Assembly (NCBI RefSeq): GCF_004297405.1
Contig: NZ_SCVC01000043.1
Span: 1 to 32,000 of the forward strand
Direction: 5' to 3'
From: Reyranella sp.
GTDB taxonomy: Bacteria; Pseudomonadota; Alphaproteobacteria; Reyranellales; Reyranellaceae
Length of the DNA: 32,000 nt
The notes beneath the pieces are model-generated. The model was given only the letters and a program-made list of their open reading frames with translations, was not told where the DNA came from and searched no databases. Below, in pieces: positions 6,605 to 17,762 of the stretch. Both the position numbers and the translations under genes were made by a program. How positions within the stretch are numbered: position 1 is the first letter of the stretch; each line of letters opens with the position of its first letter.

Positions 6605-6886
6605 GAGGAAGTGCCCCTGGAGGGGCTAAGTACGGGCACGGCCGATCAGCTCTTTCTGGCGCTGCGGATCGCGGCCTTGGAGGAGTACCTGACCTCCTCG
6701 CCTCCGCTTCCGTTCATCGTCGACGATCTGTTCGTGAATTTCGATGACGAGCGCGCGGCGGCGGGATTTGAGGTCCTTGGCGACCTTGCCCGTCGCACCC
6801 AGGTGAGCTTCCTGACCCATCATGCGCATCTGATCGGCGTGACAGAGGCGTCCCTACCGGAAATCGCGGCTCCAATACGTCTCTAG
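6605..6886 (+). pseudogene. 3'-terminal fragment of an SMC/YhaN-like AAA ATPase gene (copy 1)
   Basis: The sequence EEVPLEGLSTGTADQLFLALRIAALEEYLTSSPPLPFIVDDLFVNFDDERAAAGFEVLGDLARRTQVSFLTHHAHLIGV reads as an ABC/SMC signature (LSxGxxDQL), then a Walker B/D-loop (FIVDD), then an H-loop (THH). No Walker A or coiled-coil part lies upstream; the fecI region is there instead. Confidence 0.6.
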
Positions 6887-7315
6887 AGCGCAGGAGCAAT
6901 CCAGCCGGTCGATAAGGCTGTTATAACAGGATACCGTTATGCACCCTTTGGAGTGAGCCGGGAACGGACGCAATGCCGACGATACCTCTCGACTCGGTCG
7001 TTGAGGGCGTAGTAGGCAGCACGATGGTGGAAATGCGTCGGTGGGCGACTAGGCGCGCCTTGACCGAGAAAGCAGCAGTCTAGGGAAGCAGGTCTACTAG
7101 TCGCCCCGCAGAGTCGACTGCCCTCACGCGCTTATTGGGGGACGCTGTCTTCTGGCTCTTAAGCTCAATCAGCAGCTTCTGCGTGTCTTGCGCTGGCAGC
7201 ACAGTAGCCGTCCGCCAGGTGCCATTGTTGTCGACCTGCACGTACCAGTACTCGTCCGTAGCCGCTACTGCCCGCAGTCGCTCAGTACAGAAGCCTCATG
7301 ATGTGGCCGTTGCAT

Positions 7316-8431: not shown

Positions 8432-8682
8432 CGCGGAACGGCCGATCAGCTGTTCACGGCGCTGCGGATCGCAGCCCTGGAGGAGTATCTGACGGCCTCA
8501 CCTCCGCTTCCCTTCATCGTTGACGATCTGTTCGCAAACTTCGACGATGAACGCGCGGCGGGGTTTGAAGTGCCGGACGATCTCGCCCGCCTAACCTAGT
8601 GATCTTCCTTACGCATCACACGTATCTGATCGGCGTGACAGAGCGGGCACTGCCGGAAATTGCCGCTTCAATACGTCTCTAG
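8432..8682 (+). pseudogene. Second, more decayed copy of the same ATPase 3' fragment (copy 2)
   Basis: The sequence RGTADQLFTALRIAALEEYLTASPPLPFIVDDLFANFDDERAAGFEV... aligns by eye with 6632-6886. Relative to copy 1 it has a 3-nt deletion (AAAG to AAG), a TAG where copy 1 has CAG (8597-8599), and a 1-nt deletion right after that. Both copies end in the same ...CAATACGTCTCTAG. Confidence 0.6.
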
Positions 8683-9011
8683 ATCGTCGGGCCATAACCT
8701 AGCGTGCTGATGCGATAAGCCATTATCCCGCTGCGCCCGGTCGTAATTGATACAGCTCCGATTGAAGAGACTGTTCGACGCGCGATTGGTTCTGGACACG
8801 ATGGAAATGCGGCGAAGACTTCGTGCCCAGCTTGATTCAACACTTGCATCATCTCGGGTCCGACCGGGCTGCGCTGGCACGACCGGTCGGGTGAGCGCCC
8901 TGAACCGAGCGCGCACGGCCCAGCAGCCCGCTCTATTGTCCGCTTGGCATCACGGCTATACTACCTGGCGTAGAGTAAAGTGCCTCAGCTTTTCTAGAAG
9001 ACAATCCGCCC

Positions 9012-9860
9012 ATGTTTCTAAAGTCTCTTTGCTCAGGCTTGGCCCGGCACTGGCCCACAATCCCCCAGTCAATGCTTGTTGTATGGGGCTTAACTTGGCT
9101 CTTGATCGAGCCGTCGGCGTTCTTCTTTCCATTTGCAAAAACGCTGGCCGAAACCTACGCACCGGAGGTAGTCGGCGGATCGTCGCTTGTGGCGATCATA
9201 TATTCAATTCTTGCCACCAAAGATCCCATACAGATCCACTTTCCCATTAAGACGACAACGACCGAGGTCTGGATAAGGTTCGGAGATCTATTCGAAGCTG
9301 ACGGACACGTCGTCATTGCCGTCAACGAGTTCTTCGACAGTGAAATCGGGCGACCAGTCGCCCCTAGTTCTGTTCACGGCCAGTTCATTACTCGTGTTCT
9401 TGGCGGCAATGCCAATCGATTTAACGCTGATGTCGACCGAAGCTTAGACGGCACTGCATCGGACATAGTTGACCGGCCCGAGGGACGACCCCGTCGCTAT
9501 CCCCTAGGCACAACGGCTATTCTTCATGAGGGTCGGCGGAAGTACTTCCTGTTTGCGTTGACCAAGACGGATCCGGTGACTTGCGAAGCGAACGCGGATG
9601 TACCTCAAATGTGGTCTGCATTGCTCAAACTTTGGGATTGCGTTCGGGTCGAAGCGAACGGTGAACGCGTCTGCATGCCACTAATCGGCGCCGGACTGGC
9701 GAGAATCAATTTAGAGCCCACCCATCTCTTGCGGTTGGCTTTGCTTTCGCTCCTTGTTCAGACCAGGAGCCGGACAATTACCAGCCAGATTGAGATCGTC
9801 CTACATAAGAGCCTTATTGGCAGGATCGACCTTCGAGCAGTGCGGGACGATTGGAGATAG
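9012..9860 (+). CDS. thsA: Membrane-anchored Macro-domain protein, type II Thoeris ThsA-like effector
   Basis: 282 aa. There are two N-terminal hydrophobic helices (MLVVWGLTWLLIEPSAFFFPF and VVGGSSLVAIIYSILA). Macro-like motifs follow: IRFGDLFEADGHVVIAVNEFFD (compare GDIT..DAIVNAAN) and VCMPLIGAGLARI (compare FPxIxTGxxG). The stop at 9858-9860 lies 1 nt before the TIR-like gene. Confidence 0.6.
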   Translation: MFLKSLCSGLARHWPTIPQSMLVVWGLTWLLIEPSAFFFPFAKTLAETYAPEVVGGSSLVAIIYSILATKDPIQIHFPIKTTTTEVWIRFGDLFEADGHVVIAVNEFFDSEIGRPVAPSSVHGQFITRVLGGNANRFNADVDRSLDGTASDIVDRPEGRPRRYPLGTTAILHEGRRKYFLFALTKTDPVTCEANADVPQMWSALLKLWDCVRVEANGERVCMPLIGAGLARINLEPTHLLRLALLSLLVQTRSRTITSQIEIVLHKSLIGRIDLRAVRDDWR

Positions 9861-9861
9861 C

Positions 9862-10416
9862 ATGGCATATCGCAGCGGCACATACGTCGCGTTCCATGCA
9901 GAAGGAACGTCGGATCCGACGGAATCTGACATGAAATACTATCGGCTTCTTCAAGCGTGGGACAAGAACAAGAAGTTCGACTTCCGTCTGGTCAACAGTC
10001 ACGACAAGGTGGCTGCAGTACGCGACACTAGCAAACGTGCAACCTTGGAAGCGAGCCTCCGTCAGCGGCTCAGTAACTCCCGGAACGTGCTTTTAATAAT
10101 TGGCAAGACGACCAAATTGGACGATGACTGGATACCGTTCGAGATTGCCTACGCAGTAGACAAATGTACGATCCCGATCATCGCAGCCTACACCGACTAC
10201 GTAACTGTCACAGCACCGGCACAATTGCGCGGCCTCTGGCCAAAGGCGCTGGCGCTTCGAATCGCGAACCAGACCGCGCGTGTCATTCACATACCATTCA
10301 AACAGGCACCAGTTACCGATGCGGTCGGTCAGTTCGATCACAACAACTTACCCAAAGGCGCTGCTAGCCACTATGGCGCGGACACCTACCGCGCGTGGGG
10401 ACTAGGGCATCAGTGA
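9862..10416 (+). CDS. thsB: TIR-like (DUF1863 / ThsB-type) protein
   Basis: 184 aa from the internal ATG, beginning MAYRSGTYVAFHAEGTSDPTESDMKYYRLLQAWD. It contains ...NVLLIIGKTTKLDDDWIPFEIAYAV, the W..FEI glutamate context typical of DUF1863/ThsB TIR-like domains. It is tightly coupled to the Macro gene. Confidence 0.6.
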   Translation: MAYRSGTYVAFHAEGTSDPTESDMKYYRLLQAWDKNKKFDFRLVNSHDKVAAVRDTSKRATLEASLRQRLSNSRNVLLIIGKTTKLDDDWIPFEIAYAVDKCTIPIIAAYTDYVTVTAPAQLRGLWPKALALRIANQTARVIHIPFKQAPVTDAVGQFDHNNLPKGAASHYGADTYRAWGLGHQ

Positions 10417-14651: not shown

Positions 14652-15599
14652 ATGCCAGTGACAGTATTCATTTCGTACTCGCATGCAGATGCCGCGGTGC
14701 TTGAGCGTCTGCATAAGCATCTTGCGATGCTGCGTCGCGACTCGATCATCAAGGCTTGGACCGACCACGAAATCCTTCCAGGTGACCGCTTCGACGCCGT
14801 CATCAAGAGCAGCCTCGAAAACAGCGCATTGTTTCTGGCGCTTGTCAGCCCTGACTATCTTGCTTCCAACTATTGCTATGAGAAGGAGTTTCAGCACGCA
14901 TTGACTCTCATGAAAGCCGGGCGTCTTCGCATCGTGCCGATCATCGTAGAACCGTGCGACTGGCAAAACTCGCCCTTCGGCCAGTTCATGGCACTGCCCA
15001 AAGATGGAAAGCCGGTTTCGGATTGGACCAACGCGAACACAGCCTATCTCGACGTCGTGGGAGGTCTCCGAAGGTTCCTGACGGCGCCTGCGCCTTCGTT
15101 GACAACTGAGATCAGAACGGCTCCCGGCAACGCCGCACCTCGGCGCGTACGGGTCAAGCAGGATTTCGACTCGATTCAGAAGGCCGAATTCACCGACCGG
15201 GCATACGAGATCATCCGCAACTATTTCGAATCATCGTGCAAGGAGCTTACCGAGGTTGGAGAGGGCACTCTGAAGGCGAAGTTCGAAGCGATGAACGCCA
15301 CGACCTTCACCTGCACGGTCATCAATCGAGCGAAGAAGTCCGCCGAGGCACACATAACCATCCGCAATTCCAAAGGTGGTGGAGGTTTCTTCGGCGACAT
15401 CAACTACGTCTATGAGCGCCATGCGCCCGGCAATATATCCAATGGCCACGTGGGCGTGGAAGCAGACGACTACAGTCTCTATCTGACCTTGGCCAATTTC
15501 TCTTCTGGCCGTTCACGGGAGGACAAGTATTCGGCCGAACAGGTCGCCGACCGACTGTGGTCCGATTTGGTCAGCCGGGCGGGCATTGAGTACGAATAG
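14652..15599 (+). CDS. TIR-domain protein with about 170-aa C-terminal domain of unknown function
   Basis: 315 aa. The N-terminus VFISYSHADAAVLERLHKHL ... LFLALVSPDYLASNYCYEKEF is a bacterial TIR_2 pattern with Glu77/Glu79 at the catalytic-Glu position. After about residue 140 I recognise no motif. Confidence 0.8.
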   Translation: MPVTVFISYSHADAAVLERLHKHLAMLRRDSIIKAWTDHEILPGDRFDAVIKSSLENSALFLALVSPDYLASNYCYEKEFQHALTLMKAGRLRIVPIIVEPCDWQNSPFGQFMALPKDGKPVSDWTNANTAYLDVVGGLRRFLTAPAPSLTTEIRTAPGNAAPRRVRVKQDFDSIQKAEFTDRAYEIIRNYFESSCKELTEVGEGTLKAKFEAMNATTFTCTVINRAKKSAEAHITIRNSKGGGGFFGDINYVYERHAPGNISNGHVGVEADDYSLYLTLANFSSGRSREDKYSAEQVADRLWSDLVSRAGIEYE

Positions 15600-16124
15600 A
15601 CACGAGTGTTTTGAAAGATGCTTTCCCTTTGACACGGCGGCCAAAACCGCTCGGTGATGAGAGACCTTACGGAAACAAGCGGAGCGCGCTAACCAGAGTG
15701 TATGGTGATTGGATTTGCGCAATCAGACGGCAAGTTGCGAGAAGTCCCTCAGAGGACACAGAGCGGACAAAAAGAGGGCTTGGGCGGCCGAATCTTAAGA
15801 GGGTTTTTTCCCGAGTGGAACGGTCCGCCTGCTTCATCTGGAACGTTACGAGGGCGGCGGCCCGCTCACTGCGTGATGGTCGGCCGGCGTCCCGCGGCTC
15901 GGCTGCACAACGGCTAAATCCATCGCATTAAGGTAAACCACATCCGCTGACAGTCGAGAATTACTCACCTCGACGTATACCAACGCGGCACTGTCCCGCA
16001 GATCATTTCGACGACTGCAAACTCCCGTGCCATGGCCACCACTCCTAGAGCCGATGTAATTCTATCTACTTAGGCGCGAGCTAATATTCTTGATTAATTC
16101 TGGGCGCGCACCAAGCTCGTTCAA

Positions 16125-17762
16125 ATGAAGTTCCCTCGCCTCAGCCAGTATCGAACTGGCGGCACCAGCCAACACATGAAGGTCGGCATACCCCTACCCC
16201 GCACGCCGGATGGCCGGGTCTATCGGTTTTCGCCGAATGAGAATGCGTACCCACGCCACTTTGTTATCGGCAACGTCGTCGCGAGCGTCGGCCTTTCGAA
16301 GGAACTACGCGTTCGAATGAAGCATGAGCCCCACACTAAGCAAACTGTTTGCCCCTATAGCGGCATTGTCGCCGATGACGATGCATTCATACATCCAGAC
16401 GATGTGAAAGCAGCGCTGGAAATAGTAAAGCACGCCGCAGCGCAGGACATGCAAGACGCCGTATCGGATATATTCAGAAACGCGTTCAAAGGGAGTTCTT
16501 CGGTAAAAGGACCCATCAGAGTTACGACAGACGTAAAGCGCAGCATACCAAAGCCGAAACCGCGCTTTTCCCGCCAGGACCTTATGCGTAAGCTGGTCTG
16601 CGACCATTGCGGCCGCGACTATGGACTCTTCGCCATCGGCCTCTTCTGTCCCGACTGTGGCGCCCCCAATCTTCGACTACATTTCTCGCGCGAAGCGGAA
16701 TTGGTCGATGACCAGGTCTCGCTAGCTAAAGGAATCGAAACCGAGAAGGAAGAGTTAGCTTATCGCCTGTTGGGCAACGCTCACGAAGACGTCTTGACGG
16801 CTTTTGAAGCGACGCTAAAGGCCGTCTATTTTTATGGGAAAGCGCAGGCCAATGTCAGTCCGCCAAAGGTTGGAAACGATTTTCAGAATATAGATAAGGC
16901 TCTTAGGCGGTTCGCAGAACTCAATCTCAATCCCTTCGCGGAATTGACCGATCCCGAGATGGCAGCGTTGCTGCTCAACATCCAAAAGCGCCACATCATC
17001 GGCCACAATCTCGGCGTCGTGGATGACAAGTTTGCTACCCATGCAAACGATGCCAAGGTCGGTGAGACCGTAGGTCTCGTCGGTGCAGACATCCAGCAGT
17101 TCGCCGCCATTGGTCAGAAGGTTGTCGACGGGCTCGATGCTTGGCTTTGCGGTTCACCATCACCTACCGTCAATCATTCGCCTTTGCTCATGACAATCAA
17201 GGAACCGACCGTAGATCCAGATGATCCTAAAAACCTTAGGGCGCTCGACCTTCAGCTATCGCTGTTGGCGCGCAAAGTGGCCGTTTGGGTGGCCGAGCAT
17301 TGCACCGACGGTTCGCGCGGCTTTGTGGATGCCAGCAAGCTGCGCAAGGAATTCAAAGACAACTCCGAAGTGGAACTTGAGGAAGCAGTAGCCGAGTTGG
17401 CCACTGATGGTTTCGTAGAGATATCGCATTTTTCTGGTGGCGGATTGACGAACTTCCGGCCTTTGCTCGATCTCTATCTGACATTCGACGGACCGGCATT
17501 CGGTCGTGACCCGGTCGCCGACACAGTAACAGTCACTGAGCTTGCACTGGCGAGGCCGGATAGCGTCAGGGGTGAAGAGCTCTTAGCGCAAACAGGCTGG
17601 GATCTACGACGATTCAACCCAATATTCGAGCACATTGCGGCGCAAATCCCGGATCGTGGAGTGCGCCGCTATCTTGGCACCAAGCTTTCTGTCTCTTCCC
17701 TCCACCTACTCGCCGAAGACCGCGTACAATTAAAGCGGTTCGTCGCTCGTCTGAAGAGCTAA
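16125..17762 (+). CDS. Large hypothetical protein: zinc ribbon plus candidate HEPN-like helical domain plus C-terminal winged-helix-like region
   Basis: 545 aa. The ribbon is CDHC-N12-CPDC (C159-C178). It is followed by a helical region containing NIQKRHIIGHNLG, an Rx4H motif at R289-H294 with a polar residue after R, as in HEPN. GC looks lower than in the flanking core. It is separated from the TIR gene by 525 nt with no convincing ORF. Confidence 0.6.
   Translation: MKFPRLSQYRTGGTSQHMKVGIPLPRTPDGRVYRFSPNENAYPRHFVIGNVVASVGLSKELRVRMKHEPHTKQTVCPYSGIVADDDAFIHPDDVKAALEIVKHAAAQDMQDAVSDIFRNAFKGSSSVKGPIRVTTDVKRSIPKPKPRFSRQDLMRKLVCDHCGRDYGLFAIGLFCPDCGAPNLRLHFSREAELVDDQVSLAKGIETEKEELAYRLLGNAHEDVLTAFEATLKAVYFYGKAQANVSPPKVGNDFQNIDKALRRFAELNLNPFAELTDPEMAALLLNIQKRHIIGHNLGVVDDKFATHANDAKVGETVGLVGADIQQFAAIGQKVVDGLDAWLCGSPSPTVNHSPLLMTIKEPTVDPDDPKNLRALDLQLSLLARKVAVWVAEHCTDGSRGFVDASKLRKEFKDNSEVELEEAVAELATDGFVEISHFSGGGLTNFRPLLDLYLTFDGPAFGRDPVADTVTVTELALARPDSVRGEELLAQTGWDLRRFNPIFEHIAAQIPDRGVRRYLGTKLSVSSLHLLAEDRVQLKRFVARLKS

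Follow-up and report, generated by a model that had tools for sequence, protein, structure and literature searches.

What is encoded by the largest open reading frame (ORF) of a bacterial defence island, and does its product act alone or together with the TIR gene that lies upstream of it? This question is raised by a stretch of 32,000 nucleotides (nt) from Reyranella sp. (contig NZ_SCVC01000043.1, positions 1 to 32,000), referred to here as the window. The ORF at 16125-17762 on the plus strand is real, stop-free and complete, and its translation is a protein of 545 amino acids (aa) followed by a stop codon. The initial annotation described it as an orphan zinc-ribbon protein with a candidate HEPN Rx4H motif and considered two roles, a single-gene abortive-infection RNase or a distal partner of the TIR cassette. 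The evidence discussed below indicates that the 545-aa protein most likely works alone as a phage-triggered, RNA-cutting enzyme and not as a partner of the TIR gene, and that it probably represents a new HEPN-like single-gene abortive-infection family. In full, the preferred reading is a stand-alone, three-module protein of the abortive-infection type, in which regulatory or sensing modules are combined with a HEPN-type RNase that is independent of the upstream TIR gene; its probability is put at roughly 0.55.

The segment that first suggested a nuclease, KRHIIGHN, occupies residues 288-295. The Rx4-6H pattern by itself is uninformative, because the protein contains seven such patterns, and it is conservation that counts. 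Among 302 aligned relatives covering residues 150-346, R289, H290 and Q254 are invariant (302/302), H294 and D300 are each present in 301, and E221 is kept in 298. E228 is found in 295 relatives, with Asp in six more, and K232 in 288, with Arg in another 13, while position 297 is occupied by a small residue in all 302 (Gly in 193, Ser in 107 and Ala in 2). The Arg and His that had been proposed as the catalytic pair are thus retained in 302 and 301 sequences, respectively. Furthermore, the conservation of R289, H290, H294, D300 and Q254, and that of the cysteines of the adjacent zinc ribbon, persists down to 21% overall identity.

These residues belong to the second of the three modules, a predicted all-alpha domain (residues 183-346, window 16671-17162, plus strand) delimited with a domain model and Foldseek, which is the most conserved part of the protein. 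Prediction of this domain alone with AlphaFold2 (AF2), using an alignment of 61 sequences, gave a predicted local distance difference test score (pLDDT) of 89.6 and a predicted template-modelling score (pTM) of 0.84. The model consists of helices H1 (184-203), H2 (206-241), H3 (276-294) and, after a loop, H4 (320-342), and the insert between H2 and H3 (242-275) holds a short helix (256-264) and the FQN motif (253-255). HEPN domains have a polar residue, Asn, Asp or His, after the conserved Arg and a second acidic residue in helix 2, typically within an Ex3[KR] motif (Anantharaman et al. 2013, PMC3710099). All four positional features of such domains are found in the model. R289 and H294 correspond to its residues 107 and 112, and helix 3 spans 94-112, which places the pair at the C-terminal end of H3, at the start of the H3-H4 loop; H290 follows the Arg; E228-x3-K232 (16806-16820, plus strand) provides the acidic motif in helix 2; and an insert separates H2 from H3. 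The candidate active site reads R289-H290-I-I-G-H294-N-L-G-V-V-D300 (16989-17024, plus strand), and the earlier description of its core as part of a helical segment was correct.

Another stretch of the same domain, R214-H220 (RLLGNAH, an Rx5H pattern, window 16764-16784), was rejected as the HEPN motif, as H220 is Leu in 20 of the 302 relatives and sits in helix 2. R214 is kept in 287 relatives and H220 in 270, fewer than retain R289 and H294, and RLLGNAH resembles the RxxGNxxxH of the DUF4145 sequences that were retrieved.

The protein is not an orphan, but a member of an unnamed and large family of bacterial defence-island proteins. A word-indexed search of a database clustered at 90% yielded 663 homologues at E ≤ 1e-3, and an exhaustive HMMER scan found 781 relatives among 50%-identity representatives. 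The 120 homologues listed share 49-78% identity at almost full coverage, and all of them are labelled hypothetical and have no Pfam domain; the sources among the matches listed are Luteibacter, Caulobacter, Novosphingobium, Bradyrhizobium, Sphingomonas, Sideroxyarcus and many metagenomes. The family extends across Proteobacteria and as far as Chloroflexota, and comprises an abundant short form of about 350 aa beside the long form, of which the 545-aa protein is an example. Neither Pfam nor NCBIfam includes it, and sequence searches of Pfam, NCBIfam and the PDB with the 545-aa protein and 36 relatives returned generic zinc-ribbon noise only. The statement that no family name could be given was accordingly right, even if the family itself is large. 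As for its distribution, the 545-aa gene is present in one of the 25 genomes of the genus, and a model of its N-terminal module matches 6 of the 401 genomes of the phylum. A search for the empty site in same-genus genomes by means of the downstream flank gave no result, the species being too diverged at the DNA level.

The genes that surround the relatives provide the second line of evidence, as the homologues lie in defence or mobile settings in 13 of 14 neighbourhoods, in line with the island context that the initial annotation had set against a housekeeping one. Relatives of the long form adjoin an integrase and AbiTii, insertion sequence (IS) elements and PIN toxin-antitoxin pairs, an Mrr-type nuclease, or AbiEi/AbiEii, and one resides in an integrase-bounded island together with a reverse transcriptase gene and a PD-T7-1-like gene. 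Of the short forms, one (locus L006, 7001-8068) lies between hsdM and hsdS in a type I restriction-modification (R-M) operon, its start overlapping the end of hsdM by 11 nt, and a second follows a type IIG enzyme at a distance of 16 nt. Others adjoin HerA/DUF87 with PIN-TPR and HsdR, Mrr with IS110, HsdR with a resolvase, or BREX. Yet another, in locus L060 (1-7847), begins 2 nt after Cap3 (JAB), the last gene of a four-gene SAVED/SMODS/Cap2/Cap3 CBASS operon, and precedes a Schlafen/AlbA_2 gene; this short form may be co-transcribed with the CBASS operon. Across the 14 neighbourhoods, no conserved neighbour or partner gene was found, and a TIR gene is absent from all of them. The R-M operon of locus L006 also embeds a KTSC-domain gene and a DUF3800 gene.

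When the central domain was compared with the PDB by Foldseek, rank 1 was YutE (1ylm), a DUF86 HEPN protein, with a prob of 0.84, rank 3 was the Csm6 of T. thermophilus (5fsh), and rank 24 was HI0074 (1jog). The full-length search also returned the HEPN proteins 1o3u and 7ae6. In that search, against the PDB and BFVD, nothing scored under E 0.016, and the matches were mainly to winged helix-turn-helix (wHTH) and cullin-like proteins, because they were driven by the C-terminal domain. At the profile level, the family was aligned by hhalign with purpose-built alignments of Abi_C, made from the homologues of a neighbouring gene, and of ZnR-DUF4145, DUF3644 and HepT, made from genome searches. The comparison with ZnR-DUF4145 gave a probability of 33% (E 4.5e-4), with collinearity across 145 columns from the second zinc knuckle onwards, which is suggestive only; it is the highest value of all pairs, above every HEPN-HEPN control. 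Local alignments placed KRHIIGH on the LRHEIEH (RHEIEH) of DUF3644 and on the RNxxxH of HepT, without significance.

Several observations weigh against a HEPN domain. A HEPN core is an up-down bundle of four helices, and the Foldseek matches of the modelled helices to HEPN proteins are non-significant (E 0.37-2.6, TM scores 0.37-0.51); most of the list for the domain is taken up by 14-3-3-type and generic helical bundles. The match table of the 545-aa protein contains no Pfam HEPN family, nor is there one among the 25 Pfam families, out of 112 matched at E ≤ 1, that are hit by most of the 36 relatives. The hhalign values against Abi_C (1%), DUF3644 (0.6%) and HepT (0.3%) are low, although these negatives carry no weight, because true pairs of HEPN families compared in the same way score just 0.1-16.6% and the test has little power. 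Moreover, HEPN domains do not normally feature an acidic cluster such as E221/D222 or counterparts of the invariant D300 and Q254, all of which could indicate a metal site, and one long-form homologue (L044) sits among housekeeping genes. The HEPN reading is favoured by the R/H pair, its position in the helix, the Ex3K motif and the top specific fold matches, which are HEPN proteins at a best E of 0.37. Motif, topology and genomic context give good grounds for the assignment, which no significant fold or profile score proves.

The module that precedes the central domain (residues 1-182) opens with a beta-rich region; a long helix comes next, and a disordered linker (121-149) then leads to an intact zinc ribbon, as seen in a full-length AlphaFold model built from a 34-sequence alignment (pLDDT 80). 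The intact ribbon, C159-x2-C162-x12-C175-x2-C178 (16599-16658, plus strand), is located directly before the helical domain and uses four of the seven cysteines of the whole protein. It has the CxxC-N12-CxxC form noted earlier, its cysteines are kept in 301-302 of the 302 relatives, and it gives weak matches to zinc-ribbon profiles. A first, degenerate ribbon, recognised from alignments and from a beta-strand region in the model, is found at residues 25-84 (16197-16376, plus strand). In the short-form and distant relatives this ribbon retains CPNxxC...CPYCG, whereas in the whole long-form clade the corresponding segment (residues 36-79, window 16230-16364) reads SPNENA...CPYSG and has lost three of the four cysteines; in this clade, the fold appears to be kept without the metal ligands. 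The end of ribbon 1, the long helix, the disordered linker and ribbon 2 together form a region (residues 69-180, window 16329-16664, plus strand) that is matched by the PADLOC model PDC-M14A with an E-value of 2.3e-8. The same model matches all 36 relatives tested, at best with 1.5e-17.

A related arrangement occurs in the metagenomic representative P0195 (661 aa), in which the zinc-ribbon module (query residues 19-196) is joined to a PARIS-like AriAB ATPase and DUF4435/Toprim (PADLOC AriAB, E 4e-102); this is either a true fusion or a gene-calling artefact.

The third module (residues 380-545, window 17262-17759, plus strand) is a tandem winged-helix-like domain, identified from the model, the alignments and fold matches. 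It is predicted as two winged-helix-like units, whose fold matches are MarR, the CodY C-domain, RPC34, ScpB and STK19, with weak E-values, so that the winged-helix-like C-terminal third of the initial annotation is upheld at that level. This is the most variable part of the protein and is missing from the short forms.

A homologous domain exists in a signalling context. A 613-aa protein from the same genus (locus L009, G019:C79, 412-3258, minus strand) has a PycC-like cyclase at its N-terminus, and its C-terminus is homologous to residues 384-513 of the protein studied here (26% identity, E 7e-8 / 6e-11). It is followed by a CBASS-type patatin phospholipase effector (PADLOC E 4e-143), and looks like an unusual cyclase-sensor fusion. 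In CBASS and Pycsar-type systems, the cyclase is the sensing component. The C-terminal domain of the 545-aa protein may thus act as a sensor, because it is variable and present on a signalling cyclase, and its recurrence on a PycC-like enzyme would fit such a role.

Different functions could be assigned to the same set of features. The main rival keeps the idea of a single-gene defence effector and takes the central domain as a metal-dependent hydrolase, either a nuclease, a phosphohydrolase or an atypical zincin-like enzyme, in which the catalytic metal would be held by H290, H294 and D300, perhaps assisted by E221, D222 or E228. The motif of metzincins and snapalysin is HExxHxxGxxD, and its spacing is matched by H290-x3-H294-x2-G/S297-x2-D300, where the two His and the Asp are kept in 301-302 of the 302 relatives and position 297 is invariably small; the conserved acids E221, D222 and E228 are predicted on a neighbouring helix, and the HEPN fold match, as seen above, is non-significant. 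However, residue 291 is Ile, Val, Leu or Pro and never Glu, which means that the general base of zincins is missing, and the domain is modelled as all-alpha, without the beta-sheet of these enzymes. For these two reasons, the zincin reading of the HxxxHxxGxxD pattern was ranked lower. In addition, the top 50 fold matches include HEPN proteins and no metalloprotease or HD-domain structure, and a metal site leaves the invariant R289 unexplained, while an Arg is central to HEPN enzymes. A metal hydrolase is therefore regarded as unlikely. Less probable again is a non-enzymatic, nucleic-acid-binding regulator of a mobile element or island, such as a repressor, a partition factor or an anti-restriction factor, in which the conserved Arg, His and Asp would be structural or ligand-binding. 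The wHTH fold matches of the C-terminal domain, the zinc ribbons, which are common nucleic-acid binders, and the integrases, IS elements and resolvases next to the homologues would all suit this role. Conversely, conservation peaks in the central helical domain and not in the wHTH part, and the short forms of about 350 aa, which lack the wHTH domain, retain every invariant polar residue. That R, H, H, D and Q stay invariant in sequences with as little as 21% identity is what one typically sees with catalytic residues, and the short forms are embedded, in the same orientation, in R-M, CBASS and BREX operons.

The last rival links the protein to the TIR gene at 14652-15599, or to the Thoeris system of the island, as a co-transcribed effector or sensor partner. 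The two genes are on the same strand, the upstream one being ThsB-like, and the distance given in the initial annotation, 525 nt, is exact (the TIR gene stops at 15599); in addition, no terminator-like site was found on the plus strand of the spacer. On the other hand, a spacer of 525 nt is long for an operon junction, none of the 14 homologue neighbourhoods has a TIR gene (0/14) or a conserved neighbour, and the 545-aa protein matches no ThsA or other Thoeris model in PADLOC. Besides, a ThsA(Macro)/ThsB pair is already present at 9012-10416. The distal-partner role is thus set aside as very improbable, the least likely of the explanations considered. Of the two roles initially suggested, the single-gene abortive-infection RNase is the better supported, given the R/H pair, the predicted four-helix site and the defence and R-M contexts, with the qualification that its HEPN nature is inferred.

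In the preferred reading, that of a stand-alone HEPN-type RNase, the N-terminal zinc-ribbon module and the C-terminal winged-helix domain would be the regulatory or sensing parts, silencing the enzyme until they perceive a sign of infection, which is probably a nucleic acid or a protein of the phage. The central domain would be a metal-independent endoribonuclease of the HEPN type, whose active site would be built by R289, H290 and H294, with assistance from E228 and K232 on helix 2 as well as from Q254 and D300, which are specific to the family. As in other HEPN enzymes, the active cleft may be created by a pair of such domains. Cleavage of cellular or phage RNA would then yield ends with a 2',3'-cyclic phosphate and bring the growth of the infected cell to a halt. 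The short forms inside R-M operons may act in a PrrC-like manner, backing up restriction.

The closest known counterparts are the stand-alone HEPN RNases of abortive-infection and toxin systems, such as AbiJ/Abi_C, AbiD/F, AbiU2 and HepT/DUF86 (PMC3710099). The likeness includes a predicted all-alpha four-helix domain with Rx4H at the end of helix 3, a polar residue after the Arg (His in this case), Ex3K in helix 2 and an H2-H3 insert, together with the location in defence islands and the embedding in R-M operons. In contrast to those proteins, the present family has no Pfam HEPN match and its fold match is non-significant; it has the invariant Q254 and D300, the acidic E221/D222 and a unique pair of flanking modules, and it is not accompanied by an antitoxin or MNT partner.

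ZnR-DUF4145 (PF13643) offers a similar arrangement, as it is a single small defence-island protein with a CxxC...CxxC ribbon directly N-terminal of HEPN-like helices, and it gave the best profile-profile score of the families tried. Still, the 545-aa protein has no match to PF13643 at E ≤ 1, and the DUF4145 sequences retrieved carry RxxGNxxxH where RHxxxH is found here; the register of the hhalign alignment leaves the two motifs unsuperposed. DUF4145 proteins also have no counterpart of the long N-terminal module or of the wHTH domain at the C-terminus. Another relevant case is HEC-08, or EC042_2821 (DUF3644), a single protein with HEPN and zinc-finger parts that has anti-phage activity and for which the His of the motif is essential (bioRxiv 10.1101/2024.01.29.577857). 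Like the family studied here, it combines HEPN and zinc-ribbon-like domains in a single gene embedded in other defence systems, and two of the three DUF3644 sequences retrieved carry RHxxxH (LRHEIEH). The order of the domains is however reversed, with HEPN at the N-terminus and the zinc fingers at the C-terminus, and neither PF12358 nor the HEC models of PADLOC match the 545-aa protein (hhalign, 0.6%).

The same study defined the PDC, candidate phage defences that stem from genes found inside BREX, DISARM and type I R-M systems, and PDC-M14 appears in a supplementary table row as a two-family candidate cassette, FAM_02625>>FAM_00494, with no annotation of the partner family (bioRxiv 10.1101/2024.01.29.577857). 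Residues 69-180 match its component A, and both PDC-M14 and the present family are found embedded in R-M or BREX systems. The difference is that PDC-M14 is a two-gene candidate, while here the module is fused to a HEPN-like domain. A PADLOC scan found no match to PDC-M14B within the 545-aa protein or in the flanking ORFs (the TIR gene, 15611-15931 and the acyl-CoA dehydrogenase).

Embedding in R-M operons is also seen for PrrC and RloC, HEPN-type anticodon nucleases that reside in type I R-M operons and act as a back-up defence. The short-form relatives between hsdM and hsdS are similarly placed, but the family has no ABC-ATPase and the long form in the window adjoins no R-M system. As for membership in Thoeris, there was no match to a ThsA-type effector, either SIR2 or Macro/SLOG, and no conserved adjacency to a TIR gene. 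The family matches no model of the nearest HEPN kinds, and its architecture is its own.

Regarding the gene itself, the public annotation of this ORF is a protein of 528 aa that begins at M18, an internal ATG at 16176. The ATG at 16125 is preferred because residues 1-17, encoded upstream of the annotated start (window 16125-16175), are kept in most homologues in the alignment; judging from the sequences, the public gene call is probably 17 codons too short. The guanine plus cytosine (GC) content of the ORF is 0.545 against 0.600 for the window, and the 1638-nt segments with the lowest GC across the full window start at 15901-16401, in agreement with the low-GC patch noticed at first. The claim that this is the largest ORF of the island also proved right. 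The spacer between the TIR gene and the 545-aa gene (15600-16124, plus strand, 525 nt) has a GC of 0.549, and a promoter and terminator scan of its plus strand revealed no sigma-70-like or terminator-like site. This spacer presumably carries the own promoter of the 545-aa gene. Rfam and repeat scans around the gene gave no match.

The remaining content of the island consists of the ThsA(Macro)/ThsB pair at 9012-10416, a Tle1-like/LysM protein, a helix-turn-helix (HTH) gene with an AbiJ-like Abi_C protein, and the ThsB1-like TIR gene at 14652-15599; from 18071 on, the island is flanked by housekeeping acyl-CoA and CoA-transferase genes. The TIR gene is a strong match to PADLOC ThsB1 (E 2e-62) and lies 4 kb from the ThsA(Macro)/ThsB pair; it may be an additional ThsB of the Thoeris system at 9012-10416 and not belong to the AbiJ cassette. 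The left edge of the island carries two pairs of direct repeats, one of 127 nt with 85% identity and the other of 88 nt with 83%, which lie about 1.8 kb apart at positions 6635-6890 and 8435-8686 and fit a duplicated 3' end of an ATPase gene.

Single-protein HEPN defences are already known as a kind, and what this locus adds is a family that is large and new to Pfam and NCBIfam. Its naming can now rely on the domain boundaries given above and on a list of residues formed by R289, H290, H294, D300, Q254, E228 and the four cysteines of the ribbon, and the short and long forms represent a natural truncation series. The N- and C-terminal modules, being shared with other proteins, offer a route to the trigger of several types of defence. 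A broader idea, which is put forward tentatively and is more doubtful than the RNase assignment, is that the modules flanking the HEPN-like clade are interchangeable infection sensors common to unrelated immune effectors; the double zinc ribbon of the PDC-M14A type occurs both as a separate gene and on a PARIS-like AriAB ATPase-Toprim, and the tandem winged-helix domain is found on the PycC-like cyclase that drives the CBASS patatin effector. If this were true, defences based on RNases, on nucleotide signalling and on Toprim would use the same sensor domain to detect a single phage cue, and the short forms between hsdM and hsdS would serve as PrrC-like back-ups, triggered when restriction is inhibited. 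For the genome of this Reyranella sp., the 545-aa protein would be a further independent system in a 9-kb defence island, separate from the TIR cassette.

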